Assembly: GCA_050250895.1 (NCBI GenBank)
Contig: JBFWNU010000002.1
Location: 439,659-503,658, forward strand
DNA: 64,000 nucleotides
Reading direction: 5' to 3'
DNA from: Vulcanimicrobiota bacterium
Lineage (GTDB): Bacteria; Vulcanimicrobiota; Xenobia; Xenobiales; JADMJV01
The notes under the pieces are model-generated. The model saw only the letters and a program-made list of their open reading frames with translations, was not told the origin of the DNA and searched no databases. Shown one piece after another: positions 27,454 to 41,380 of this stretch (positions are counted from its first letter, which is position 1; each line of letters opens with the position of its first letter). The position numbers and the translations under genes are program-made.

Positions 27454-28264
27454 CGAAGAAGGCTTTGGGATACATCGGGTGGCCGAACACCCGCACTTCC
27501 CAATGCAAGTGGGGGGCAAAGCCCCCGGTGCCGCCCACCGTGCCGATCTTCTGACCACGCTTGACCTTCTGGCCCTCGCGCACGGCGATCGAATTCATGT
27601 GAAAGTAGCTGCTGCCCACGCCGAGACCGTGGCTGAGCACAACCGTGTTGCCATTGACGATGCCCCGGGCCGTGTGCAGCACCACTCCGTCAGCCGGGGC
27701 CAGCACCGCTTCGCCTTCCCAGCCGGCTAGGTCCAGGCCTTTGTGCCAGCTCTTCTTCCAGCCGTTATAGGTGCGGCGCAGGCCGTAGCCGGTGCTCTCG
27801 GGAGCCTCGACCGGGTAGTGGAACTGGCCGTGCCAGCGCTGTTCGGGGTCAAAAGGCTTGAGGGCTTCGAGGATGGCCTCGTCGTCGGCCTTGTTCTGGG
27901 GATTGTCGTAGTTCGCCAGGGTCGATTCTGGCAGCGTGATGCTCTGCGAGCCGTAGTTGCGACTCTTGACCGGGATGGTGCGAGACAGGGTCTGGCCGTC
28001 GCCCAGGCGCACTACCAGCTCATGTTTGCCGGGTTTGAGATCGCGGGGCACGGGCAGAACCGTGCGCAGTTGGCCCTGATCGTCGCCCTCGGTCAGGTCG
28101 AACTCTTCGTCGGCCCACTCGATGGTGGCGCTCGCCCCGGGTTCGGCCGTGACGGTTACGAACAGTGGCCAGCCCTGTTCGGCGTTGCCCATGAGCGATA
28201 GGGTCGGCTCGGCCAGGGCAGGGGAGAAGAGCAGTAACAGCAAGAGCAAGGTTGATTTCGACAC
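27431..28264 (-). CDS. M23 metallopeptidase with signal peptide
   Basis: HKGLD, YFHM, PHLHWE; signal peptide ending ALA. Confidence 0.9.
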   Translation of the reverse strand: MSKSTLLLLLLLFSPALAEPTLSLMGNAEQGWPLFVTVTAEPGASATIEWADEEFDLTEGDDQGQLRTVLPVPRDLKPGKHELVVRLGDGQTLSRTIPVKSRNYGSQSITLPESTLANYDNPQNKADDEAILEALKPFDPEQRWHGQFHYPVEAPESTGYGLRRTYNGWKKSWHKGLDLAGWEGEAVLAPADGVVLHTARGIVNGNTVVLSHGLGVGSSYFHMNSIAVREGQKVKRGQKIGTVGGTGGFAPHLHWEVRVFGHPMYPKAFFVIPKAWL

Positions 28265-28300
28265 GCCTCGAGCTTCTGGGCGGGTCGGGCTTTTCCTCGC
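28252..28300. repeat. 49-bp direct repeat, copy A (M23 promoter + first codons)
   Basis: TTGATTTCGACACGCCTCGAGCTTCTGGGCGGGTCGGGCTTTTCCTCGC; 46/49 identical to 34337-34385. Confidence 0.9.
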
Positions 28301-28951: not shown

Positions 28952-29457
28952 AGCGCTTCCTCGTTGTGGCTGTTCTCATCCTACCACAGTAGCCGGAGGA
29001 TGGCGAAAGAATCAGGTCTCTGAAGCGATCGAGTTGCGAACTTCTGGCCGGATGCTAGTGTCCGGCGAGTAGGCGTTCGCCGGTCACGAATTCGCGGCGA
29101 CGGAGACCCTGGCCGGTTTGCTGGGCATGGGTGCCTGCCCGGCCAGTTCGCGCAGGCGGGTTGGGGGTCGACTCTGGCTTTGAGGGCCTCGAGCACGGTG
29201 CGGTCAAAGTCGTTCATTCGGGGTCGATAAAGCGCCGAATGCAGGGAAAGGTGACGGCGAGCGCTCGAAAGCGGTGAGTGGGGTCTGTCATCGCGTTGCC
29301 AACAACCAGAGAACGACTATCGGAGAGTTCCTCTTTCAACTTCGCAAGTAGAAAGGATGGACTCAGAAGGAACTGGCGGAAGCCCTGAGAGTCTTCCTGC
29401 GCTCGGTGGTGACCTGCCAGAGGCTTCAGAGCCTCGCTTCGGGAAAGCTGGGATAGC

Positions 29458-29652
29458 ATGATGACCAAGCAAGATTTCATGAGGCTCGTCGAGTCTCTGC
29501 CGGAGGATACTCCCTTTGAGCAACTCGCGGCAGAACTCGAGAAGATTCGATTCAAGGCGGAGATCAACGCCTCGATCGCAGAGTTGAATCGAGGCGAGGG
29601 CATCCCCCACGAAGAGGTGGAACACCGTCTCGCAAAATGGCTCGAAGACTAA
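29458..29652 (+). CDS. Putative antitoxin of a RelE/ParE pair
   Basis: 64 aa, LPED...GEGIPHEEV; overlaps the toxin start. Confidence 0.7.
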   Translation: MMTKQDFMRLVESLPEDTPFEQLAAELEKIRFKAEINASIAELNRGEGIPHEEVEHRLAKWLED

Positions 29653-29920
29653 CCTGGTCGCCCAGGGCACTAGCGATGCTCGAGGCGATCTGCGACTACA
29701 TTGCCATCGACAACCCTGCAGCAGCCAAGAAAGTGGCCACCGAGATCGTTGCCCATGTCCGTTCCCTGAGATGGCTGCCTGGTATGGGTCGGATCGTGCC
29801 CGAGTATCGAGACCCAGCATCCGTGAAAAGATCTACGCGGCCCAGTTTCGAATCGTCTATCGCCTGATGGGCCTCAGGAGGATGTCTTTCGTGGCACTCA
29901 GGAACTGCCGGATACGCCGG
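29637..29920 (+). pseudogene. RelE/ParE toxin, frameshifted
   Basis: WSPRA..L..I.DYIA.DNP.AA...GRIVPEY; the expected continuation SIREKIY..QFRIVYRL lies in another frame after ~29813. Confidence 0.75.
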
Positions 29921-30417
29921 AGTTCTAGCCCGAACTGAAACGTAGCCGGGGCGCCGGCTCGTCCTTAACCTTAAGGCGCGATAGCCGGCGCCGCGAGAGG
30001 TGGCCGCAGCTGCAACGGAGGGTTCAGGTCGCCGGGCCTGGACCGGCGGCGGGCGCGCCTCTCGCACCACGTTGAACACGATAGAGGCGCGCGCGAAAGG
30101 GACCCGCATGAAGGCCGGCAGAAACCGCCCAACCGAGGACCGCCCTTGTTTCTGCCGGCCGTGGCCCCCGGAGGGGGACGGGGGGCGAACCTGCCCTGGC
30201 CAGCTCGGCCGCGGCCACCACACTTGTCACTTGTCACACAAGATTGCTCGCGAAATTTTCGTCGGCGGCGATGGGGGCTGCGCCTTCGCTTTTGGCCACC
30301 AGGCGCAGCCCCACTGAGCCGCCGGCCCCAGCCCGCCCAACGGCCACGACGGCCGCCCTTCACCGACAATTTGAAAGGCCCAAGCCCCGGCTAAGCCGAG
30401 TCTTGGGCCTGGGTCTT

Positions 30418-30588
30418 GGCGCTACCGTTCCGCGCGCAGTTCTATCAGGTTCGACGTGGTCTGAGAACTGCGCCCGAGCGCCTTTCAGCGACGGTCACGC
30501 CCTTCTCCGTTGCAGTCCTTGCTCACGTCCCGCGGCGCTGGCGAGCGCCCTTTCGTGAAAGGGCGCGCCGGCGCCCCGGTGGCGTTTC
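30418..30588. repeat. Structured ~172-bp repeat R, copy 1
   Basis: Close match to 40342-40515; hairpins GCGCAGTTCT/AGAACTGCGC (30434-30473) and GCGCCCTTTC-GT-GAAAGGGCGC (30545-30566). Confidence 0.9.
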
Positions 30589-30597
30589 AGTCCTCGG

Positions 30598-31080
30598 TCA
30601 TGAGCTAGAAGCTTTCTTTGAATCTGCCAATGCGCCATCCAGGATACGTTCCAGGCGCGCGTTCTTGAATCGCCGCCCTTCGCATTCCCCCTGGAATGCC
30701 TCCAATACATGCCGAAAGGCCGGCCTGCCAAGGCAGGAGCGATGGACCATCTTATAGTTAAACTTGTAGAGAGGTGACTCTCTTTCGGTAGTTAAAAGAC
30801 CTAGGCCGAGGGTATCGTCGGGGGTTTCAATTCTTCGCTTGCACAAATCGCAAAGATATTGCCCTGGCTCCGGACGTGCCTCTTCCCAATTGCGAAGGAC
30901 CTCTAGGATTGAAGCCCCCTCAACGTGTCTTGTCAGGCACGCTTGGTGAAAGAAGCGTTCATTGAATCTATAGAGGGCTTCTCGTTCATTTGCAACGATG
31001 TTCGCGAAACCAATAGGCTCTTCGTCAATCTGCTCTTCGCATAGCGCGCATTTGGTGACACCTTCGATAAAGATTCCCAT
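30598..31080 (-). CDS. Putative immunity protein with two CxxC...HxxC motifs
   Basis: Abuts the toxin-tip stop; lower GC; CALC...HQAC, CDLC...HRSC. Confidence 0.65.
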   Translation of the reverse strand: MGIFIEGVTKCALCEEQIDEEPIGFANIVANEREALYRFNERFFHQACLTRHVEGASILEVLRNWEEARPEPGQYLCDLCKRRIETPDDTLGLGLLTTERESPLYKFNYKMVHRSCLGRPAFRHVLEAFQGECEGRRFKNARLERILDGALADSKKASSS

Positions 31081-31443
31081 CTATGGTTTTCTCCAGAATT
31101 TTGTGAATTCACCATGTTCGAGTAACCAGGAACTCTTCTGGCCAAGTCTGTCGAGAACCGCAAAGTCCCCAGGAGAAGGCCCAGTAGGCGGCAGGCTGTA
31201 TGGATGGGTATGTCCCACCCAAGTCTTTATCTCGTCAATAATTGATCCGATCTTGATTCCGTCACGTCCGCCGCTAAACATCTGCAACGTCCCATCCTTC
31301 ATTCTGAAAACGGAGTGCTCGACATCGTTCATGTAGGTCAAACGTTTTGCAGTATCTACGAGTTCGTCGAGGGATTGACCTGTTGCGTCCATGACGAACC
31401 TAGCTTCGCGAAGATCCTTCCCGCAGTTGCCAGCTCGTATCAC
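31081..31443 (-). CDS. JAB/MPN-like toxin tip, out of frame with the upstream Rhs core
   Basis: EH...HTHP...PSPGD motif. Confidence 0.6.
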   Translation of the reverse strand: MIRAGNCGKDLREARFVMDATGQSLDELVDTAKRLTYMNDVEHSVFRMKDGTLQMFSGGRDGIKIGSIIDEIKTWVGHTHPYSLPPTGPSPGDFAVLDRLGQKSSWLLEHGEFTKFWRKP

Positions 31444-32690
31444 TAGCCCCCGACTTCGGCGGAACGAGCCGCTCTAGCTCCACGTGCTAGATTGACTCCC
31501 CCAGGGATGACGCTGATTGCGGCCCCGAGTCCTGTCAGCAGACCCGGAGCACCGACAAAGTCCGCTACAGCCATGGCTTCGCCTACGACAGGCAGAAAAC
31601 CTAAGCCAAAGACCGCGGCTGCCTTTTGCCCCTGGACATACTGCTCCGCGCTTGGTTGATCAGCCCACGGGATGACCATCTCACCGGCATCTCGACCAGG
31701 AATCAGTCCTGAAGGGTCCACGAATTCGACCGGTTTGTTGCCCGCATAGGCATACCGATTCAAATTCGCCACTTTGTCCTTGCTCAAGAACCTGGCCAAG
31801 GTCGGATCGTAGTGCCGCTGCCGCATGTAGAGCAACCCGGTGTCGGCCGTGTCGTCGTGGACGCCAAGCCCACCCACGTAGGTCTTCGGGCTATCCGAGT
31901 CGGAACTCGGGTCCTTCACCCCCCACTCGTCGTGGAGGAAGTTGGAAGTCGCCCCGTTCGAGGCCTTAACCATCACCCGCACCGAGGACAGCCCATCGGT
32001 TAGAAAGTAGAAGTAGTCGCTGCCCTTCTGGAAGCCCAGCAACTGGTGCCCCATCAGGTAGCTGAAGGCGTCGGAGCCGTCGACCTCAGAGACGGTAGGC
32101 AAGCCGGAGTAGAAGCTCTTGAGCTTCACTCCGTCATCGCGCACCTTCTTCTTACGCAGGTTGCCGGAATCGTAGACGTTGACGGTGGTTCCATCGGGCT
32201 TTTCGACGGCCGCCAGGCGGTCGAAGTCGTCCCAGAAGTAGTTGGTCGTCGCTGGCGTACCGCTCGGGTCGAGAACCCGGGCGATCATGTTGCCATCATT
32301 GTCGTGGCTAAACGACTCCACCAGAGCCGGCGAGCCCATGCCGATCGTGACCGAGCGGGAAGAAAGCTGGTCGGCGTTGTCATAGGCAAAGGTATGCAGC
32401 TCGGGAGTCATCAGGTCTTGCATGTCCACGCTGATGCGGTTGTCGGACTCATCGTAGCCATACAATCGCACCACCGAAGTGCTGCCAAGGTTGGCGCCTT
32501 TCTCGACCTGCACCAGGCGGTCCAGCCAATCGTAGTTGTATTTCCAGGCCACCGCGTTGGCCGTGTTGGCCGGCGTATCGACCATGGTGATGCGGTTGCC
32601 GCTATCGTCGTAGGTATACTCGAAGCTGTGGATCCTCGAGCCATCCAGATGGTAGAAGAGCCGCAACAAGTTGCCATTCTCGTCCCATCC
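31443..32690 (-). pseudogene. N-terminally truncated Rhs/YD-repeat protein (core end + pre-toxin region)
   Basis: YTYDDSGNR, YDWLDRL, TGLLYMRQRHYDP...RFLSKD, NRYAY...VDPSGL. Confidence 0.85.
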
Positions 32691-32782
32691 CGGCTCGGTG
32701 GCCGCACCGGGCGGTTTCGTTAAAGATACGGTCGGCCTCGCTGGTTCGCTCGATCGTCAGCCGGCCGCTACCTCAGGAGCGA

Positions 32783-33913
32783 CTATCGCTCGAATTGCCG
32801 GCCCTGGCGGTCCCAGAAGCTCAAGCCGTCGGGCGCCGTGCCACGGATGAAGAGAAAGCCATCGTGCACGTTGCGATGGCAGCCCGTGCACAGGAAGATG
32901 AGATTGGCCGGAACGGTCAGGCCGCCCAGGGCGAAGAAGCGGATGTGGTGGGATTGAAGCCAGATATGGTTTGGGCAGTCGGGGGTCTGGCAGCAGTAGC
33001 AGTCACGAATCTTTAGGGCTTCCGTCTGGGCGGGCGTGAGCCCGCGGGCGTCAGGGTTGAACTTCAGCTTCGGCGAGACCTCCCAGTGGGGCTCGGCGCG
33101 ACAGGCCAGTTCGACGTCCGGATTGCCAGGGCACTTCTCGCCGTCGACGGCGGTGGTAGCCATGAAGAACTCGTCCCCCGGGGGACGAACGCCCAGCTCT
33201 TGAGCCAGTTCGTGGGCCTTGCGGATGGGTCCGGCCAGCTTGCGCTGCTGCGAGGCGGCCACCGCGGCGGCTTTGGCGCGAAGTTCCTCGAGGTCTTTCT
33301 CGGTCACGGGCGCGACTTGCAAGCGTTGGGCCAGCATTAGCGCCAGGGCCTCTTTGAGTTCGACCTTGCGCCCTAGCTCGAGCGAGAGAGAATGCAAGAC
33401 TAGCTTGAGTAGCTCGCTCGTCTCGGGGTCGAGGTGCAAAGTGATCTCTTCACTCTCGACCTCGGAGGGCGGCCGCTCGCCGGGCAGGCCGCCTTTAGGA
33501 GTGGCGGCCACCAGGCGCCGGATGACCGAGGTGGAATACAGCGAGGCCAATTCGAGCCACACCAGCTCGGTCTCAGGAGTGGCCTTGCTGACGATTTCAC
33601 GCAGCTTGGCCCAACCGATGTCGCCCCGCTCGGCTGACGCGGTGATTTGTGGCAGGTCTTCGAGCTGGCGGGCCACGCGACGACAGGCGTTGGCCTCTTT
33701 CTTGGTGATCCCCAGCAGGCGGATAGCATAGTGGATGGGGCCACTGCAGCCAAAGTCCTGATAGCGACCGGTGGCTTGAAGGGCCAACAGGCAGCGGCCG
33801 AGCAAGATACGGTGGATGACCAGGCCGAAGGAAGCGCGGCGGGCCATGTGGTGGAGGGCCTCGGGTTCGAGGGCGATGAGAGCTTCGCGGGTGTGTTCTT
33901 GAAGAGGTTTCAT
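32783..33913 (-). CDS. HNH endonuclease with long N-terminal helical (DUF222-like) region, copy 1
   Basis: RDCYCCQTPDC...HHI...GG.T.PANL..LCTGCHRNVH; TAAAAT-N6-ATG promoter. Confidence 0.85.
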   Translation of the reverse strand: MKPLQEHTREALIALEPEALHHMARRASFGLVIHRILLGRCLLALQATGRYQDFGCSGPIHYAIRLLGITKKEANACRRVARQLEDLPQITASAERGDIGWAKLREIVSKATPETELVWLELASLYSTSVIRRLVAATPKGGLPGERPPSEVESEEITLHLDPETSELLKLVLHSLSLELGRKVELKEALALMLAQRLQVAPVTEKDLEELRAKAAAVAASQQRKLAGPIRKAHELAQELGVRPPGDEFFMATTAVDGEKCPGNPDVELACRAEPHWEVSPKLKFNPDARGLTPAQTEALKIRDCYCCQTPDCPNHIWLQSHHIRFFALGGLTVPANLIFLCTGCHRNVHDGFLFIRGTAPDGLSFWDRQGRQFER

Positions 33914-34160
33914 ACGCCTATTTTACCGAGGCGAGGGCCGTTCGAGCAAAAGATCGAACAGGCTTGAATGGCTTGGTTATAGGGTTTTTTGGCCTTCGAG
34001 AAGATGATGTCCGGGCTTTGTAAGGGGCTCGGCGACTCGAATGTCAAAATCTTGTTTTGAGCCTCGCTGAAGAGGCCTCAGGTGGATCTATGGAGCTGTT
34101 TGGGAGCGAGGTCGTCTTATCGGCCTGGTGGCCGACTTGGAAAGTTTTTTTGAAAAAAAA

Positions 34161-34347
34161 CCGGGGGACGAACGCCCAGCTCTTGAGCCAGTTCGTGGGC
34201 CTTGCGGATGGGTCCGGCCAGCTTGCGCTGCTGCGAGGCGGCCACCGCGGCGGCTTTGGCGCGAAGTTCCTCGAGGTCTTTCTCGGTCACGGGCGCGACT
34301 TGCAAGCGTTGGGCCAGCATTAGCGCCAGGGCCTCTTTGAGTTCGAC
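34161..34347 (-). pseudogene. Internal fragment of HNH copy 1 (187-bp duplicate of 33178-33364)
   Basis: Apparently identical sequence at offset +983. Confidence 0.9.
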
Positions 34348-34385
34348 ACGCCCCGAGCTTCTGGGCGGGTCAGGCTTTTCCTCGC
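34337..34385. repeat. 49-bp direct repeat, copy B
   Basis: TTGAGTTCGACACGCCCCGAGCTTCTGGGCGGGTCAGGCTTTTCCTCGC. Confidence 0.9.
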
Positions 34386-34431
34386 GCGCGCCGTTCGACC
34401 GAAGGGCGCGACACCGCCCCGGTGGCGTTTC
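34386..34431. repeat. Structured repeat R, partial copy 2 (right-hand ~45 bp)
   Basis: CGCGCCGTTCG-AC-CGAAGGGCGCG...CGCCCCGGTGGCGTTTC. Confidence 0.7.
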
Positions 34432-35278
34432 AATTCGCGAAACGAACTACCCCGAGAGCGTAACCCTTCGCTTTGATGCTCTCGAGTAATTGCCGCACTT
34501 TCTGAGAAACCAGAACCAGTGGCGCTGGCATTAATATTCCGCTACGCCTCCCGAGCAATTCGCTGGTTGTAACGAAGTCGGAGCCATCCCAGTCCTGCCT
34601 ACGAACAAATAGTTCCGAATGGCGGTTCAGGCCAAGCACATGACCGGCTCTTCCGACCGGGCAACGATCCCGATAATCTGAATCTCCCTCAAAAAGACTA
34701 CCCCCAACAACCGTTGGGGGGGCTATCGAAACTGTACGGGCTGTATACTTTGGCTGAAACCAAGCGATTCTCTTTCCATTCTTCGCCAGGATCGGCTCAA
34801 AATCGACCCCGGTCACACCGGCAGTTTCCAAGACCTTCACCAACGCCTCCGAAAAGATTCTCTCCGAAGACATCGAACTCGTCATCACCCTCTTTTTTGG
34901 AATGGAACTAGGCCGAAGATAGAGCGGACCTATTTGGCTCCGCCCTGCTCCACAAACATCACAAGAGGTCGACTCATCATATTTTGTACCACATTCCTCG
35001 CCTGTGGGCTCAAAGGCATCCCATACGGTTAGAAGGAGGAGGGACGCTGCGCTAAGCTCCGCCTTGGTGTATCGATAGGAAATGTCCCAGCCAGAAAACA
35101 GGTGGTCCCCCCGACTGCGTAGCTCTTGCTGGAGCGATCTTATCGTTGGGAGGCGCGGGTCATCATGCGAGACCTGAATCACTCTGACTGGAATCGGGTC
35201 TAAAGACTTCCCCTCGTTGGGCAAAAATACCCGATGTGCGGGCGCTTCTTTGACTCGTAGCTCGTAGATTTGCTTCAA
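34430..35278 (-). CDS. Putative immunity protein (CxxCG-containing)
   Basis: Lower GC; 4-nt overlap with the upstream toxin remnant; SCDVCG. Confidence 0.65.
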   Translation of the reverse strand: MKQIYELRVKEAPAHRVFLPNEGKSLDPIPVRVIQVSHDDPRLPTIRSLQQELRSRGDHLFSGWDISYRYTKAELSAASLLLLTVWDAFEPTGEECGTKYDESTSCDVCGAGRSQIGPLYLRPSSIPKKRVMTSSMSSERIFSEALVKVLETAGVTGVDFEPILAKNGKRIAWFQPKYTARTVSIAPPTVVGGSLFEGDSDYRDRCPVGRAGHVLGLNRHSELFVRRQDWDGSDFVTTSELLGRRSGILMPAPLVLVSQKVRQLLESIKAKGYALGVVRFAN

Positions 35279-35640
35279 TATCTTGGTCCTATCGCGTCTC
35301 TAGGATGAGTTAGGTGAGGCGCGGCTTCCATCCACACTCTGTGCTTCGCGTCGCGGCGGACAAGCGGATACCTTTCGAAGGTTTCGTCTATTGCTTCTTG
35401 AACCTCCTGCAACGTGCGCCGAGGGGGGGCGCCGCTTGCGAAACCGGGTTTCCCCTTTGATAGCTCGTGATAGGCTGATGGTATGCAGAATCCAATGGGA
35501 CGGGTTCCCCCGCGGGTTTGTCCCATCCGGGTCCACACAGGTCAACGGATTGTTTCCGCAGTAGGCATCCAGGTTCATGCCGCCGCTGTAACCGATGGGA
35601 TCGCGCACCAGAAGCGCGGGTCTGGACCGGCGCGCCCAGC
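35275..35640 (-). pseudogene. Degraded Rhs core end + toxin tip remnant
   Basis: RDPIGYSGGMNLDAYCGNNPLTCVDPDG followed by frameshifted sequence. Confidence 0.75.
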
Positions 35641-35651
35641 TGGGTGCGGCG

Positions 35652-36060
35652 GGAGTGGCGGCCACCAGGCGCCGGATGACCGAGGTGGAATACAGCGAGG
35701 CCAATTCGAGCCACACCAGCTCGGTCTCAGGAGTGGCCTTGCTGACGATTTCACGCAGCTTGGCCCAACCGATGTCGCCCCGCTCGGCTGCCGCGGTGAT
35801 TTGTGGCAGGTCTTCGAGCTGGCGGGCCACGCGACGACAGGTGTTGGCCTCTTTCTTGGTGATTTCCTAGCAGGCGGATGGCATAGTGGATAGGGCCACT
35901 CCAGCCAAAGTCCTGATAGCGACCGGTGGCTTGAAGGGCCAGCAGGCAGCGGCCCAGGATGACGCGATGAATGACCAGGCCGCTGCTGCCGCGACGGGTC
36001 ATGTGGTGGAGGGCCTCGGGTTCGAGGGCGATGAGAGAGGTTTCATACGCCTATTTTACC
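35652..36060 (-). pseudogene. Degraded 5' part of the HNH gene including its promoter (paralog of 33498-33927)
   Basis: High similarity with indels; same TAAAAT-aggcgt-ATG. Confidence 0.88.
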
Positions 36061-36342
36061 TCAGTGCGCGCGCCAGCCTGGCAAGCCGGCTGCACCGAGG
36101 TATGGCCGAGCGACGGAGAAGTCCCCCGGCCGTTCGCGGCTCAGAGGCTGGCCACCCCGGTTCTTGCCTAGTCGAACATCTGTCCAAGCTCCGCAAGCAA
36201 GGCATCTTACAACCAGCGAATGCGCTGGTGTGCCTACAGGCAGGAGTTCTAGAGGAGACGAGCCGCATTCCGGACACTTAAGCTCGGCCTCTAGATTCTC
36301 CTCAAGTTTTGCCAAGGTCTTCACCCACAGTTTGGTATTCAT
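36061..36342 (-). CDS. Small zinc-ribbon protein, possible orphan immunity protein
   Basis: CPECG...CLACG; same strand and context as the other modules. Confidence 0.5.
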   Translation of the reverse strand: MNTKLWVKTLAKLEENLEAELKCPECGSSPLELLPVGTPAHSLVVRCLACGAWTDVRLGKNRGGQPLSRERPGDFSVARPYLGAAGLPGWRAH

Positions 36343-36466
36343 CTCGAGAAGAATGCCTTATCTGCGTTTCTGCAAAACGTGTAAGTCGCCTTCGCCTCTA
36401 ATGAAGCCAGGTCTCGCCGCAATCCGGTGGAGCTGGACCGAGCCCCGATGACCGACCCGCTGGTCG

Positions 36467-37096
36467 CTAGCTCCTCGCCCCTGTGAGTGCGGCATAGCTG
36501 TTCATCAAGTTGCGATAGTTGGGAATGTGAGCCGAAAACAGCGATCCCAGCCCTTCAATGTCGTTACGCCAATCGCGGTGGAGTTCACAGGCCATGGCAA
36601 ACCAGGTGAGCAACTGAACCCCCGCAGCCTGCATTCTGAGCCAGGCGCTTTCCCGGGTTACCTCGCTGAAGGTCCCGCTGGCGTCGGTAATGACGAAGAC
36701 CTCGTATCCGGCCTCGATGGCCGAAAGAGCCGGAAAGGCTACGCAAACCTCCGTGACTACGCCGGCGATGATGAGTTGTTTCTTGCCTGTGGCCTCGACC
36801 GCGTTCAGGAAGTCTTGATTGTCCCAAGCATTGATCTGTCCTGGTCGAGCGATGTAGGGCGCATCGGAGAACATTTCCTTCAGCTCCGGAACCAGGGGAC
36901 CGTTGGGGCCTTGCTCAAAACTCGTGGTAAGAATCGTGGGAAGCCCGAAATATTTGCCGCAGGCCGCCAGAGCCAGGACACTGTTTTTGAACTCGCTGGG
37001 CGAAAAATCTTGCACGAGCGAAATGAGACCGGTCTGGTGGTCCACCAGCAAGAGGGCAGCGTCGTCTTTGTCGAGTTTGCGATACCTGATAGTCAT
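36467..37096 (-). CDS. ycaC: YcaC-like isochorismatase-family hydrolase
   Basis: LLVDHQTGL, TTSFE.GPNGP, RPGQINAWDN, GVVTEVCV, ELHRDWR. Confidence 0.88.
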   Translation of the reverse strand: MTIRYRKLDKDDAALLLVDHQTGLISLVQDFSPSEFKNSVLALAACGKYFGLPTILTTSFEQGPNGPLVPELKEMFSDAPYIARPGQINAWDNQDFLNAVEATGKKQLIIAGVVTEVCVAFPALSAIEAGYEVFVITDASGTFSEVTRESAWLRMQAAGVQLLTWFAMACELHRDWRNDIEGLGSLFSAHIPNYRNLMNSYAALTGARS

Positions 37097-37168
37097 GATG
37101 GAATCCCTTTCCTCAGGAGAATACTTAGAGTCTATGCTCTCACTCACCCTTCTGGGAAGTGACCAGAA

Positions 37169-38131
37169 TCAGAATGCAGCGTTCTCTTTTTCAGAACGCC
37201 AGGGAGGGGGAAGCTCCTGCTCCCAAGGAGGATCTCGTTTCAGAGACTCCTCGACATGCTCAGCCAATAGACGTACACGAAGCAAGCGCGAGCGACGAGG
37301 AGCACAACCCAGGACGATTCGGTCCGGCCTGGGCTCATCGTTGGGAAGGACACGAACGAGGCGTCCCGCTCGCAAATCATCAGCCACAATAAACAGCGGC
37401 AGAACGGTGATCCCAAAGCCCGACACCGCCGCGTCCCTCATCATTTCCCCGTTGTTTGTAGTCAGCCGACTGCCGGCGGGCAGCAGTTGTTCGGCCCCGG
37501 ATTTCTCCACAAAACTCCAAAGGCGTTCTCCCTCCAGGTTGGCATAACCGATACCCAGATGAGCGATCAACTCCCTTCGATCTCGAGGGACCCCAAACTT
37601 CTTTACATAGGCGGGGCTGCAACATACTGCTCTGCGGCTAAACCCGATCTCGGTCCAGTTTTCCGTTTTTTGAGGCGGCTCGCTGGTGATACGCACTCCC
37701 AGGTCGTAGCCCTCGGCAGCCAGGTCCACTCTATGATCGTGAAGTTCAATCTGCATTTCGATCCTAGAGTATTTCTTCAAGAAGTCCAGCAAGACGGGAC
37801 TCAAGAAGGCGTTCGTGAAAGAGGTTGGAACGCTCACCTTAAGCGTTCCGCTGACTTTCGTGAAGTCAGCCGCCAGCGAATCCGCGGCGGCATCGAGCGC
37901 CAGCAAAGCATCAGAGATCTGAGCGTAATACTGAGCTCCACGTTCGGTCAACTCCACCCCTTTGTTGGAGCGACGCAACAGCTCCGCTCCGAGAGCGGTT
38001 TCTAGACGGACCATCCTCTGGCTCACCATAGATTTGGCGATGTCCAACTGCCTCGCCGCTTTGCTGATGCTTCCCGACTCCACGACAGTAAGAAAGGTGC
38101 GAATATCTATCAGCTCATAGTGTCCGATCAA
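37169..38131 (-). CDS. LysR (CrgA-like) regulator
   Basis: GSISKAA..L...KS.VS...LE..LG..LL.RS; VDL..EGYDL..R. Confidence 0.9.
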   Translation of the reverse strand: MIGHYELIDIRTFLTVVESGSISKAARQLDIAKSMVSQRMVRLETALGAELLRRSNKGVELTERGAQYYAQISDALLALDAAADSLAADFTKVSGTLKVSVPTSFTNAFLSPVLLDFLKKYSRIEMQIELHDHRVDLAAEGYDLGVRITSEPPQKTENWTEIGFSRRAVCCSPAYVKKFGVPRDRRELIAHLGIGYANLEGERLWSFVEKSGAEQLLPAGSRLTTNNGEMMRDAAVSGFGITVLPLFIVADDLRAGRLVRVLPNDEPRPDRIVLGCAPRRSRLLRVRLLAEHVEESLKRDPPWEQELPPPWRSEKENAAF

Positions 38132-38314
38132 AGCTTCCCTCTCCCTTGCGTGGAGTTTCGGTTCTTGCCAGGGCCGTCAATACCCTCAAGTTCGGATGCT
38201 TACCTGTGGATTGGGTCCGCCGTCGAGGATTCAGTCGCGACTCGGAAAGGACCCCGGGTGCCTACCCTCTTCACCGTCACTCGTCCTTGCTCACGTCCCA
38301 GAGCGTGTTTCAGT

Positions 38315-38713
38315 CTAGTCAGCGCACTGCGAAGTGGGCGGCGCAAGCCAACCTTTCCCATGACACCGGAAACAGACGACATTCTTGTTACGAGGCGACC
38401 AGCGTGTTCCTTGGCAGATGTCGCAGTCATCTGCGGCGGGCGGGGCAGGTTCAACTAGCTGAAGCAGCTCTGGGAGTTCGAGAAAACGGGCCGCATGAAC
38501 AAGAAAAGTGCTGGCTTCGTCGGGTTCGGCATCCTCCAACGGAGAAGAATCGACAATGCCGTCCCCCTCGACGAGAACTCTTCCGTCCCGGGTCAGGTAA
38601 CTGACCAAACCAATGCCTGAGGTCAAAACGATGGCATCGCCTGCATTTTCGGCTAAAATATTCTTCTCTAGCTGCCAGAGTTTGATCTTGTCGAATAGCT
38701 CGGCCGAGATCAT
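38315..38713 (-). CDS. Putative immunity protein with CxxCxG zinc motifs
   Basis: CDICQG...CFRCHGKG; ATGA overlap with the upstream remnant. Confidence 0.6.
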   Translation of the reverse strand: MISAELFDKIKLWQLEKNILAENAGDAIVLTSGIGLVSYLTRDGRVLVEGDGIVDSSPLEDAEPDEASTFLVHAARFLELPELLQLVEPAPPAADDCDICQGTRWSPRNKNVVCFRCHGKGWLAPPTSQCAD

Positions 38714-39175
38714 GGCTTCTTGGGAATGGCCCGACGACTCTTTAACCAGTTTACAATCACATCGTTCGCGTGTTCGAAAGCTTCGTTGATCCTTCCTACA
38801 AAGACCTTCCCCTCTCTATCAACCAGCAGGCCCCACCTGCTTCTGTCGGGTCGCCCCGTCTGAAATCCGTGCTGTGCTCGGTAATATACGCCCATTAATC
38901 TGGCGGCTAGCTGTTGCCGAGATGCTGCAGCTGTTTCTTCGAGCAGGCACGGGGCTGAGCCCCGTCGCGGATGACACACGAATGACAGCACCAGCCCCCG
39001 TAGCTAGTTCTCGACCACCGTCCTGGTGGGGAGCGAGAGTGTCTTCCTTGTCCGGTTGCCGACCTCGTCGAACTGATAGCTGGCGCTCATCACGGGAGTT
39101 AGCCCGTTTGCGCAATCGATCTGGCTCAACCGGCCACGGTCGTCGTAGGTCGCGCCATAGTCGGTGGTGGCTGGC
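38710..39175 (-). pseudogene. Rhs YD-repeat fragment plus toxin-tip remnant
   Basis: TYDDRGRLSQI...YQFDEVGNRT at ~39010-39170; short lower-GC tail ending at 38710. Confidence 0.6.
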
Positions 39176-39220
39176 CTACCGCTCGGATGAGAACCCGGAC
39201 GCCAGCCCCTCCGCGCACAC

Positions 39221-40264
39221 GTGGGTCGCGAATTCTGGACCCTCGAAAACTTGAGCAAGCTCCCTCACGAGCGGCTGGAAAGGGTGATCCGTCGCCTGGC
39301 CAACACCCTGGCCCTGACTCGCATCCTGCTGGGGCGATGTTTATTGGCTATCGAGCGCACCGATTTTTGCGCCGAGACCGGCTGCCATTCGGCTCTCCAC
39401 TTCGCCCGGCTGATCAAAGTCGAGAAACGCGAGGCGCTAGATTCGATGCGGATCGCCGGCCATCTCGAAGAGCTGCCGCTGTTTTCCAAAGCCTACGAAG
39501 AGAACCGAATTTGCTGGTCCAATCTGCGCGTGGTCACCCGCATCGTGACGCCCGAGACCGAAGAGGCCTGGCTTGACCTGGCGGTGCGCCTCAAGCCTCA
39601 TCGGCTGGCTCGCCTGGTGGCCGGGGCCAATCGCGGCGACACTCCGGCCGAGGCGGCCCTGAATATGGTAGAGGAGGTTGAGCTTCGTTTTCGGGTCGCT
39701 CCTGAAGTGTCCGAGCTGTGGTCGCGAGCCGTGACCGTGATCTCGAGAGACCATGGGGGCACGGTCAAACCGGCCGAGGCGTTCGAATGGATCCTGGCCG
39801 ACTTTCTGGGTGGCCAGGTAGAGCAGCTCAAGGTTGAGGCCGCCCAGGACCTGGTCGCTCCGGTCGAGGCGCTGGCGATGCAGACACACGTGTGTCCGGG
39901 CGAGTCGAAACTGCAGTTGGCCGGACGGCTGCGGTTCAGTCCGAGCAAGCGTCAGGCGACTGCCGCCCAGCGCCGGGCAGTGCTGCGGCGGGATGGCTAT
40001 CGCTGCTCTTGCCCGGGCTGCCCCAACAGACTCTGGCTCGATGTGCATCACGTAGTGTTCTACTGTCGCGGCGGACCGACCGTGCCTGAGAATCTGGTGG
40101 TGGTGTCCTCGCGCTGCCACAAGAACATCCATCGGGGCATCCTGCGCGTTAGCGGGGTGGCTCCCCAGGGGCTGGTCTGGCGTGATCGCCGGGGGCGCGA
40201 GCTGGAACGCGAGCCCGAGAGCGGGCTATTGGAATGGCTGCTGGAGTGGGCTCACGCTGGCTAG
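39221..40264 (+). CDS. HNH endonuclease with long N-terminal region, copy 2 (divergent paralog)
   Basis: RILLGRCLLA, TPETE..W shared with copy 1; RDGYRCSCPGC...DVHH...GGPT..ENL...SSRCHKNIH. Confidence 0.85.
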   Translation: MGREFWTLENLSKLPHERLERVIRRLANTLALTRILLGRCLLAIERTDFCAETGCHSALHFARLIKVEKREALDSMRIAGHLEELPLFSKAYEENRICWSNLRVVTRIVTPETEEAWLDLAVRLKPHRLARLVAGANRGDTPAEAALNMVEEVELRFRVAPEVSELWSRAVTVISRDHGGTVKPAEAFEWILADFLGGQVEQLKVEAAQDLVAPVEALAMQTHVCPGESKLQLAGRLRFSPSKRQATAAQRRAVLRRDGYRCSCPGCPNRLWLDVHHVVFYCRGGPTVPENLVVVSSRCHKNIHRGILRVSGVAPQGLVWRDRRGRELEREPESGLLEWLLEWAHAG

Positions 40265-40341
40265 GTTGCGGCGACGGAGAAGTGACCCCCGCTACTAGAC
40301 CTTTTTCTCGCGGAGGGGGTCGCTGAGCGGTCGCCCCCCGG

Positions 40342-40515
40342 GGCGCTACCGTTCCGCGCGCAGTTCCATCAGGTTCGACGTGGTCTGAGAGCTGGGCCCG
40401 AGCGCCTTTCAGTCACGGTCACGCCCTTCTCCGTTGCAGTCCTTGCTCACGTCCTGCGGCGCTGGCGAGCGCCCATCTTTGGCCAAAGGGCGCGCCAGCA
40501 CCCCGGTGACGTTTC
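40342..40515. repeat. Structured ~172-bp repeat R, copy 3
   Basis: Close match to 30418-30588; starts 78 bp after the HNH copy 2 stop. Confidence 0.9.
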
Positions 40516-40921
40516 TCTCTACGATCCTTCGCCTGAAATTGTCTGCCAACCGAGTCAAGAAGGGCGAATCGTCTCCTGGCGGAGGTCCGAACTCATAAAC
40601 GTATGGATACTCAGAGTCCAACTCGGACTTTGGCCTGATAAACATTCCTGGCCTCATAAAGGGCCTAGTTGCCTCGTTGACTTCGACCCGGAAAAGCCAT
40701 CGACGCGGACGTCTCGCAAACGGCGGCGTCGATGGCCGCAGCCTAATCGGTCCCAAGACGGTATTCTCTGTGCCTATCTCGCAATGAATGAATGAAGGAT
40801 ATCGCTCTTCGGCCCGTTTGGGAATCAACTCGTAGAGATCTAATCCCAGTCCACTCTCCAAACCGCGAGAATCCACGGGCTCCCGTATTGCTACGACTTT
40901 CCATCTCCAAGTCTCGCTCAT
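40409..40921 (-). CDS. Putative immunity protein whose last ~35 codons read into repeat R
   Basis: Lower GC; ATGA overlap with the upstream toxin remnant. Confidence 0.55.
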   Translation of the reverse strand: MSETWRWKVVAIREPVDSRGLESGLGLDLYELIPKRAEERYPSFIHCEIGTENTVLGPIRLRPSTPPFARRPRRWLFRVEVNEATRPFMRPGMFIRPKSELDSEYPYVYEFGPPPGDDSPFLTRLADNFRRRIVERNVTGVLARPLAKDGRSPAPQDVSKDCNGEGRDRD

Positions 40922-41380
40922 GACTTCTTGTACGCTCTTAGGGCCCAGTCATTCAACCACTGCTCGTGGGAGTTCAGTGGCTCACCGAACCCTGGCCGGT
41001 TGTGGGCTTCGTTTACTACCTTCGAGTGGATGAGCGTTTCCACCTGGAGTCCTGTCTTATTCGCATCCAATCCAGACTTATGAAGCTCACCGTGAAAGTC
41101 TCGTGGGCAGCCGTGATTCTCAGCGCGTTTTTCTTCCAAGTTCGATGCATCTCAAGGAACGACCGGAATCCGAGGGATAGCCGGGAGGACATCTTCGCGT
41201 GGACCCGTCGTGGTCGCTCCGCTCTGGTCCAACATCACGGCCGCCGCTCTAAGGGCAGTTGCCTCCAACCAACCCCGACTCCACCTCGATCAATCGCCAG
41301 GTCCGCTTGCTGGTTCAGGTACTGTTGATTGGCCACCGGACATCAAATTGGCCCAAGCGTAGCCCGGTGGGGTCAACACA
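40918..41380 (-). pseudogene. Degraded Rhs toxin tip beginning at the DPxG motif
   Basis: Minus strand 41380-41360 reads CVDPTGL, then frameshifts; His-rich tail FHGELH...EAH at 40918-41139. Confidence 0.55.

Follow-up and report, generated by a model that had tools for sequence, protein, structure and literature searches.

The stretch analysed here (the window) comprises 64,000 nt of contig JBFWNU010000002.1 (positions 439,659 to 503,658, forward strand) from the Vulcanimicrobiota bacterium assembly GCA_050250895.1. It contains an 11-kb island (29.9–40.5 kb of the window) that carries Uma2, one toxin-antitoxin pair, two HNH genes, two HNH fragments, and five toxin-like/small-gene pairs, of which three retain Rhs core remnants. 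All five copies (c0 to c4) of a structured repeat lie inside this island, where they occur behind two unrelated gene classes. A preliminary description of this DNA reported three copies. The coordinates and sequences that it gave, the sharp boundary shared by the copies, and the three hairpin tips are all as described, and the count rises to five with c0 and the degenerate c4. In a self-BLAST, c1 (30418–30588) is 91.4% identical to c3 (40342–40515) over 174 nt and 69.9% identical over 173 nt to c0 (29934–30101), which is inverted relative to it. In the window, an nhmmer profile of c0, c1, and c3 recovers c2 (34434–34387, E 2e-4) and, weakly, c4 (38303–38265), whose local score is equalled by 2 of 1110 background windows. 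A covariance model applied to the 64 kb with filters off returns, at E < 0.2, only its own training copies c0, c1, and c3 and their self-complementary hairpins. No further full-length copy occurs in the window, and the other 50 kb, housekeeping gene ends included, contain none. The repeat is real, broader, and better supported than first reported.

A full copy, read on the strand of the upstream gene, consists of the boundary ACTGAAAC, hairpin 1, a linker with a conserved motif, and hairpin 2. All five copies start with ACTGAAAC or a near match on that strand. Hairpin 1 is imperfect, about 60 nt long, and has a variable palindromic tip; hairpin 2 has a conserved 12-nt loop. Each hairpin contains a conserved 2-nt bulge. 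The 3′ ends are ragged or decayed and are not common to the copies. Beyond its 48 nt, c2 is joined to unrelated duplicated DNA. In c4 a short spacer takes the place of hairpin 1, the exact 16-nt linker motif and an 8-nt boundary are retained, and the 3′ extent is uncertain, possibly reaching about 38190.

The boundary lies at gene stops. It begins 0 nt past the stop in c4, 6 nt in c1, and 5 nt in c0, the last counted from the inferred stop of a frameshifted ParE gene, and in c2 ATTGAAAC overlaps the TGA stop. In c3 the boundary is AGAGAAAC, and the gene at 40409–40921 reads 35 codons into the repeat. Both the c2 overlap and the c3 read-through had been described correctly. The position of the consensus TGA falls in frame at codon 136 of the c3 gene, and the alignments of seven homologues stop at residues 111–135, with the read-through part missing from all seven. 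In view of these two findings, c3 most likely terminated its gene in earlier times as c2 does now. The chance of such stop proximity is about 0.029 per site, counting intergenic positions only, and roughly 2e-5 for c1, c2, and c4 jointly; these figures are post hoc and take c1, c2, and c4 as three unambiguous sites.

The upstream genes belong mainly to putative toxin/immunity modules. Four of the five stand directly behind toxin-like genes (three with Rhs remnants), and the fifth is a broken ParE toxin gene, so that the earlier statement that the repeat is always at the 3′ end of an immunity gene is too strong. Only the gene before c2 has family-level support for an immunity function, from SitI6/Imm11-like look-alikes with scores of 0.89–0.90, which is a lead; the others are called immunity genes by their position behind a toxin-like open reading frame (ORF). 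Stop and start codons overlap or abut in modules A, B, C, D, and E. Rhs domains are present in modules A, B, and D, as in orphan rhs-CT/immunity arrays, and no Rhs remnant was identified in module E. The features are collected in Table 1.

Table 1. Repeat copies, gene modules, and HNH sequences of the island (window coordinates).
Feature	Position	Strand	Remarks
Antitoxin-like ORF and frameshifted ParE toxin gene	29458–29928	+	Toxin-antitoxin module before c0; antitoxin by position only
Repeat copy c0	29934–30107	+	Full length, diverged; inverted relative to c1; begins 5 nt past inferred ParE stop
Repeat copy c1	30418–30591	-	Full length; ACTGAAAC boundary, hairpin 1, linker, hairpin 2; begins 6 nt past stop of 30598–31080
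Module A	30598–32669	-	Rhs core remnant 31443–32669, toxin C-terminus 31081–31443, putative immunity gene 30598–31080
HNH gene 1	32783–33913	-	DUF222-like; ParB-like helix-turn-helix (HTH) + HNH; no repeat copy at 3′ end
HNH-piece junction	34161–34385		Exact 187-nt internal piece of HNH gene 1 + 49-nt duplicate of 28252–28300, directly beyond c2
Repeat copy c2	34387–34434	-	5′ 48 nt only; ATTGAAAC provides TGA stop of gene 34430–35278
Module B	34430–35650	-	Rhs core end, frameshifted toxin C-terminus, SitI6/Imm11-like immunity gene 34430–35278
Broken HNH gene 1 copy	35652–36060	-	5′ half only; fused to Rhs core end of module B
Repeat copy c4	38265–38314	-	Degenerate; ACTGAAAC immediately 3′ of TAG of gene 38315–38713
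Module D	38315–39200	-	Rhs fragment, toxin-like ORF 38710–38991, putative immunity gene 38315–38713
HNH gene 2	39221–40264	+	5′-truncated relative to 98% homologue; Ser for one zinc-motif Cys; converges on c3
Repeat copy c3	40342–40518	-	Full length, hairpin 2 partly decayed; boundary AGAGAAAC
Module E	40409–41139	-	Toxin-like ORF 40918–41139; putative immunity gene, its family alignment stopping at the boundary of c3

Both hairpins covary beyond chance, but nearly all of the signal comes from one pair of copies, c0 and c1. Set against the predicted structure of c1, c0 has six pairs changed on both sides where equal random substitutions would give 1.18 (P 0.00075), and c2 has one. In the three-way alignment both sides have changed in 9 of 47 pairs, a number that 0 of 500 shuffles reach; this control disregards relatedness, and the structure was derived from the same sequences. 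As to the compensatory changes reported earlier, covariation exceeds chance mainly between c0 and c1, and c3 against c1 shows none.

These features suggest, with a probability of roughly 0.4, that the repeat serves the exchangeable toxin/immunity and toxin-antitoxin modules of this Vulcanimicrobiota island as a cassette-end recombination site, one that is non-canonical and specific to the lineage. The repeat would mark the 3′ end of such modules and fold as single-stranded or cruciform DNA, and a trans-acting enzyme would cut and join it at the ACTGAAAC boundary or close by. This enzyme could be an integrase or HUH enzyme from another part of the genome; the local HTH-HNH nuclease is a less likely candidate. 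An incoming module would arrive with a copy or become joined to one, often using the TGA of the copy as its stop codon. The observations in favour are the fixed 5′ boundary at stops, the gene orientation, the covarying hairpins, the ragged or decayed 3′ ends, and the confinement to the island within the window. A cassette-end site would explain together the nucleotide-fixed boundary, the position at gene stops in gene orientation, and the confinement to two kinds of modules. The same geometry agrees with the earlier suggestion that the boundary is a recombination joint, though not one of canonical attC type.

Several findings weigh against a cassette-end site. Functional inference draws on a single locus, because no copy was found outside the window in the GTDB scan or in the plasmid and phage searches. 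The DNA between the copies is scrambled with HNH pieces and shows no clean cassettes. No recombinase, transposase, or reverse transcriptase occurs among the 21 island and 43 flanking ORFs scanned (the latter being likely real frames chosen from 88 candidates), and no integrase or tyrosine recombinase domain was found in the window ORFs scanned. RYYYAAC is present at the gene-proximal end in 0 of the 5 copies, the boundary being ACTGAAAC-like. Strand energies and z-scores disagree among the copies, and no preference for one strand holds throughout, whether for RNA or for DNA. Compared with the structure of c1, c3 has no compensatory pair, two broken pairs, and three A-C pairs, which is decay and not compensation. 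Template switching can also produce compensatory changes in palindromes without selection.

The cassette-end site would be analogous to attC (PMC3053210) and to the repeats of rAID clusters (10.1101/471110), without belonging to either family. Like integron attC, the repeat is an imperfect palindrome, here with bulges conserved in both hairpins, directly 3′ of a cargo gene, with a variable hairpin tip and toxin-antitoxin cargo. It lacks the RYYYAAC/GTTRRRY pair of the attC core-site definition, taken from the available text of PMC3053210: GTTRRRY is absent within 240 nt in four of five copies, and the match in c0 at +137 falls in the hairpin-2 loop, unpaired to the boundary. The repeat has 175 nt and two hairpins, whereas attC is one palindrome of 57–141 bp, and attC works on one strand according to the same text. 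No consistent strand bias was seen and, unlike in integrons, there is no integrase among the window ORFs scanned and there are no tidy cassettes. The attC-like site proposed in the preliminary description therefore fails the canonical core test and has no integrase in the window ORFs; with no recombinase alongside, the repeat works like attC or rAID repeats at best.

rAID clusters are immunity arrays with integron-like intergenic repeats, as presented in the available part of 10.1101/471110. By the criteria of that source, the locus resembles Bacteroidales rAID in its immunity gene array, in the repeated intergenic sequence among low-GC immunity genes, and in its skewed GC content (0.49–0.55 for the cargo against 0.62 for the window). 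It differs in having no XerD-like recombinase in the window ORFs, in keeping toxin tips and Rhs remnants, in its mixed orientation, and in the phylum. The locus is also similar to orphan rhs-CT/rhsI arrays (PMC3150448; Vibrio, PMC5361080), with broken Rhs cores, orphan tips, immunity genes in series, and mobile genes between them. In contrast, the accessible portions of both papers link exchange in those arrays to a conserved sequence that precedes the toxin tip on its 5′ side, and they mention no structured repeat where the immunity gene stops. Rhs poly-immunity loci are also the subject of a 2026 preprint (10.64898/2026.07.13.738213), which places Xer-dependent sites beside them and, in its available text, mentions no hairpin repeat.

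The Rfam search proposed in the preliminary description matched no family: no match reaches the gathering score in the 64 kb, HEARO (RF02033) included, and ranking by E-value over c0, c1, c3, and c4 gives chance-level matches only. Resemblances to a hammerhead, a tRNA-like structure, a group II intron, and a cobalamin riboswitch have no support from Rfam or ARAGORN.

An exact-pattern scan of GTDB for two conserved motifs, blind to copies that differ in either motif, returned 69 loci and 0 real copies (best nhmmer E 0.64, best covariance-model E 0.66). blastn of the repeat found no match in phages and one 58-nt match in plasmids (E 4e-3), the c0-c1 region found none in plasmids, and tblastn of three putative immunity genes found none in plasmids; the plasmid results are blank or at chance level. 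The literature searched on DUF222 + HNH proteins (judged by title and abstract start), Eremiobacterota rhs toxins, toxin/immunity integron cassettes, and orphan rhs repeats describes no such repeat, and the repeat is not previously described in the libraries or literature searched.

The most probable alternative, less likely than the cassette-end site, is a passive conserved 3′ flank. Here ancestral rhs and toxin-antitoxin operons would have had the repeat as a structured 3′ untranslated element that stabilises the mRNA or terminates transcription; it would travel with displaced toxin-tip/immunity modules, and it may act as a second arm for homologous recombination. The copies are always in gene orientation just past the last gene, with c0 and c1 facing each other between convergent genes, and the swapping of orphan rhs-CT/immunity arrays by recombination at conserved core sequences is well described in the available text of PMC3150448 and PMC5361080. 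As RNA, c1 folds strongly, above 200 of 200 shuffles (z -3.1), but for c0 and c3 the margin over shuffles is small (z -1.8 and -1.5), and c4 shows no such signal. No U-tract terminator was called at any copy, and no copy stands behind housekeeping genes in the other 50 kb. A flank carried along in this way accounts for the orientation, but not for the sharp boundary, and homologous recombination alone leaves the nucleotide-fixed boundary unaccounted for.

Somewhat less likely is a non-autonomous palindromic mobile element, similar to a repetitive extragenic palindrome (REP), a terminal inverted repeat (TIR), a palindrome-associated transposable element (PATE), or a miniature inverted-repeat transposable element (MITE), moved in trans by an HUH or insertion-sequence (IS) transposase. 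With a TGA in its fixed end, insertions would survive only at gene ends. The repeat shares with REP, REPIN, TIR, and IS605 PATE sequences the character of an extragenic palindrome, and it has one sharp end, one ragged end, and two sub-terminal hairpins. The inverted pair c0/c1 is like REP dimers in the available text of PMC3733652, and the strand opposite the gene ends with TTCAG or TTCAA in four of five copies, like the IS605 right-end TTCAC in the accessible part of 10.1101/2023.03.14.532601. REPs are tagged palindromes of 20–40 bp in high copy number (length from PMC3733652), whereas the repeat has 175 nt and five copies in 11 kb, bound to one island. The far ends of c0, c1, and c3 share no target motif, although the true far end is uncertain, and no transposase, HUH type included, was found in the window ORFs scanned. 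The fixed end would be explained by such an element, but selection is needed to explain the position. The pair c0-c1 as one 658-bp MITE was rejected, as no target duplication was seen around it and c2 to c4 are solo.

The HNH proteins have a Pfam HNH match and a weak DUF222 match. The structural model (mean predicted local distance difference test score 84) has an N-terminal helical domain whose four best fold matches are the DNA-binding domains of ParB, Spo0J, and KorB (best Z 9.4, root-mean-square deviation 2.6, 99 residues), although helical domains can reach such Z by arrangement alone. The C-terminal HNH part resembles the HNH domains of TagI, IscB, and McrA, and IscB chains align only at residues 294–364. 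Foldseek gave no match to the model at E 0.001. The nearest named homologues (98% and 87%) are from Vulcanimicrobiota/Eremiobacterota, and near-identical relatives form a cluster of 12 members. Many close homologues lie on contigs of 1–5 kb, a pattern that a repeated mobile gene would produce. A tblastn search with HNH gene 2 gave one distant plasmid match and no phage match. In the broken copy (35652–36037) one half is 99% and the other half 88% identical to HNH gene 1, which suggests recombination between paralogues. Upstream of the start codon, HNH gene 1 and this copy (33903–33927 and 36036–36060) have only about 14 nt in common, among them TAAAAT 6 nt before the ATG; this may indicate a leaderless gene and mark where a mobile HNH unit has its left edge.

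A more specific form of the cassette-end site is a long shot. It would be an undescribed Vulcanimicrobiota gene-cassette system, in which the 175-bp double-hairpin site, able to supply a stop codon, serves as the recombination site of Rhs toxin-tip/immunity and toxin-antitoxin cassettes, and the interleaved DUF222-like ParB-HTH-HNH protein is the nicking enzyme that starts the exchange. If this were true, a widespread uncharacterised HTH-HNH family would gain a function.

A protein-coding remnant or an assembly artefact is largely refuted and very unlikely. The gene reading 35 codons into c3, the many frameshifts of the island, and the exact 187-nt duplication speak for it; the read-through part is lacking in the seven homologues. 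Substitutions between c0 and c1 are spread evenly over codon positions (15/16/13), and the indels cause frameshifts. No Pfam or PHROG family matches the open frames that span the copies (one Pfam row has E 0.09), and none of the eight candidate proteins gave a match. Since the substitutions are even and no family or protein matches, the repeat is not a coding remnant, and copies that are 70–91% identical are not duplicated reads. The idea that hairpin 1 encodes an Imm11-like motif was rejected, because homologues of the c3 gene stop short of this hairpin.

A guide-RNA scaffold for the HNH nuclease with TnpB-like geometry (HNH gene, scaffold, variable guide) is the least probable alternative. 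c3 lies 78 bp past the stop of HNH gene 2 (40264), as the preliminary description stated; it is on the strand of that gene and has variable sequence past the boundary. A structured non-coding DNA beside an HNH gene with a sharp constant/variable boundary is like OMEGA systems (IscB, IshB, TnpB) and HEARO, but this holds for one of five copies and one of two full-length HNH genes, four copies being elsewhere than at an HNH end. HNH pieces are within 1.3 kb of c2, c3, and c4 and about 2.2 kb from c1, and the 12-member cluster of near-identical relatives would also fit. IscB and IshB carry PLMP and TnpB carries RuvC in the available text of PMC10734217. The HNH translations show no PLMP motif, RuvC was likewise not seen, and the fold lists of the model contain no TnpB-like whole-protein match, which does not rule one out. 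The IscB model matches the HNH part only (scores of 25 and 36 bits, where the cut-off is 175), and the modelled ParB-like N-terminal HTH points to protein-based DNA recognition. Each "guide" is antisense to the end of its host gene, and the best second match in the window has 3 mismatches of 20, which is uninformative. The OMEGA/HEARO RNA proposed earlier is unlikely, since PLMP and RuvC are unseen, HNH gene 1 has no repeat, and HNH gene 2 is truncated and lacks one zinc-motif Cys; the repeat is not HEARO.

The question that a cassette-end site bears on is how polymorphic-toxin/immunity arrays gain genes without homology to the recipient. In the available text of a Vibrio study, homologous recombination alone cannot explain this gain, and no integrase is known (PMC5361080). 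A structured site fixed at the immunity stop codon is a concrete candidate junction for such gain. The cassette-end role is the mechanism that we infer. Should the repeat prove to be a substrate for recombination, a phylum that has barely been studied would have a cassette site other than attC; should it turn out to be no more than a conserved 3′ flank, it would be a modest lineage-specific repeat.

Further observations concern the DNA around the copies. Two possible remnants were not counted as copies: 36060–36180 (+) is borderline, its score being equalled in 10 of 1110 background windows, and 40271–40340 (+) is not significant (21% of background). Both have the same variant of the linker motif and lie beside HNH sequence. 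The spacer between the facing c0 and c1 (30108–30417) has 310 nt, 68% GC, and many more hairpins, and could be the 3′ extensions of both elements. Upstream of the toxin-antitoxin pair, a remnant at 29214–29457, read by eye, resembles an HTH regulator with an internal stop. Module C (36061–36460, minus strand) is a truncated toxin-like/small-gene pair without a recognisable boundary motif, and its small gene may read past the natural end. An intact LysR regulator and an isochorismatase-family gene (36467–38131, minus strand) lie among the toxin modules, with c4 just upstream of the LysR gene. The 49-nt segment at 28252–28300, the start and upstream region of an M23 peptidase gene, has a direct duplicate (94%) at 34337–34385, and the two bracket 6.1 kb. 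The duplicate is joined to the HNH fragment through an 11-nt near-match, a possible insertion scar. The product of 40409–40921 (minus strand) belongs to a small protein family with seven distant homologues and invariant WxW and EIG motifs; it has no Pfam, NCBIfam, or PHROG match and is a candidate new immunity family.

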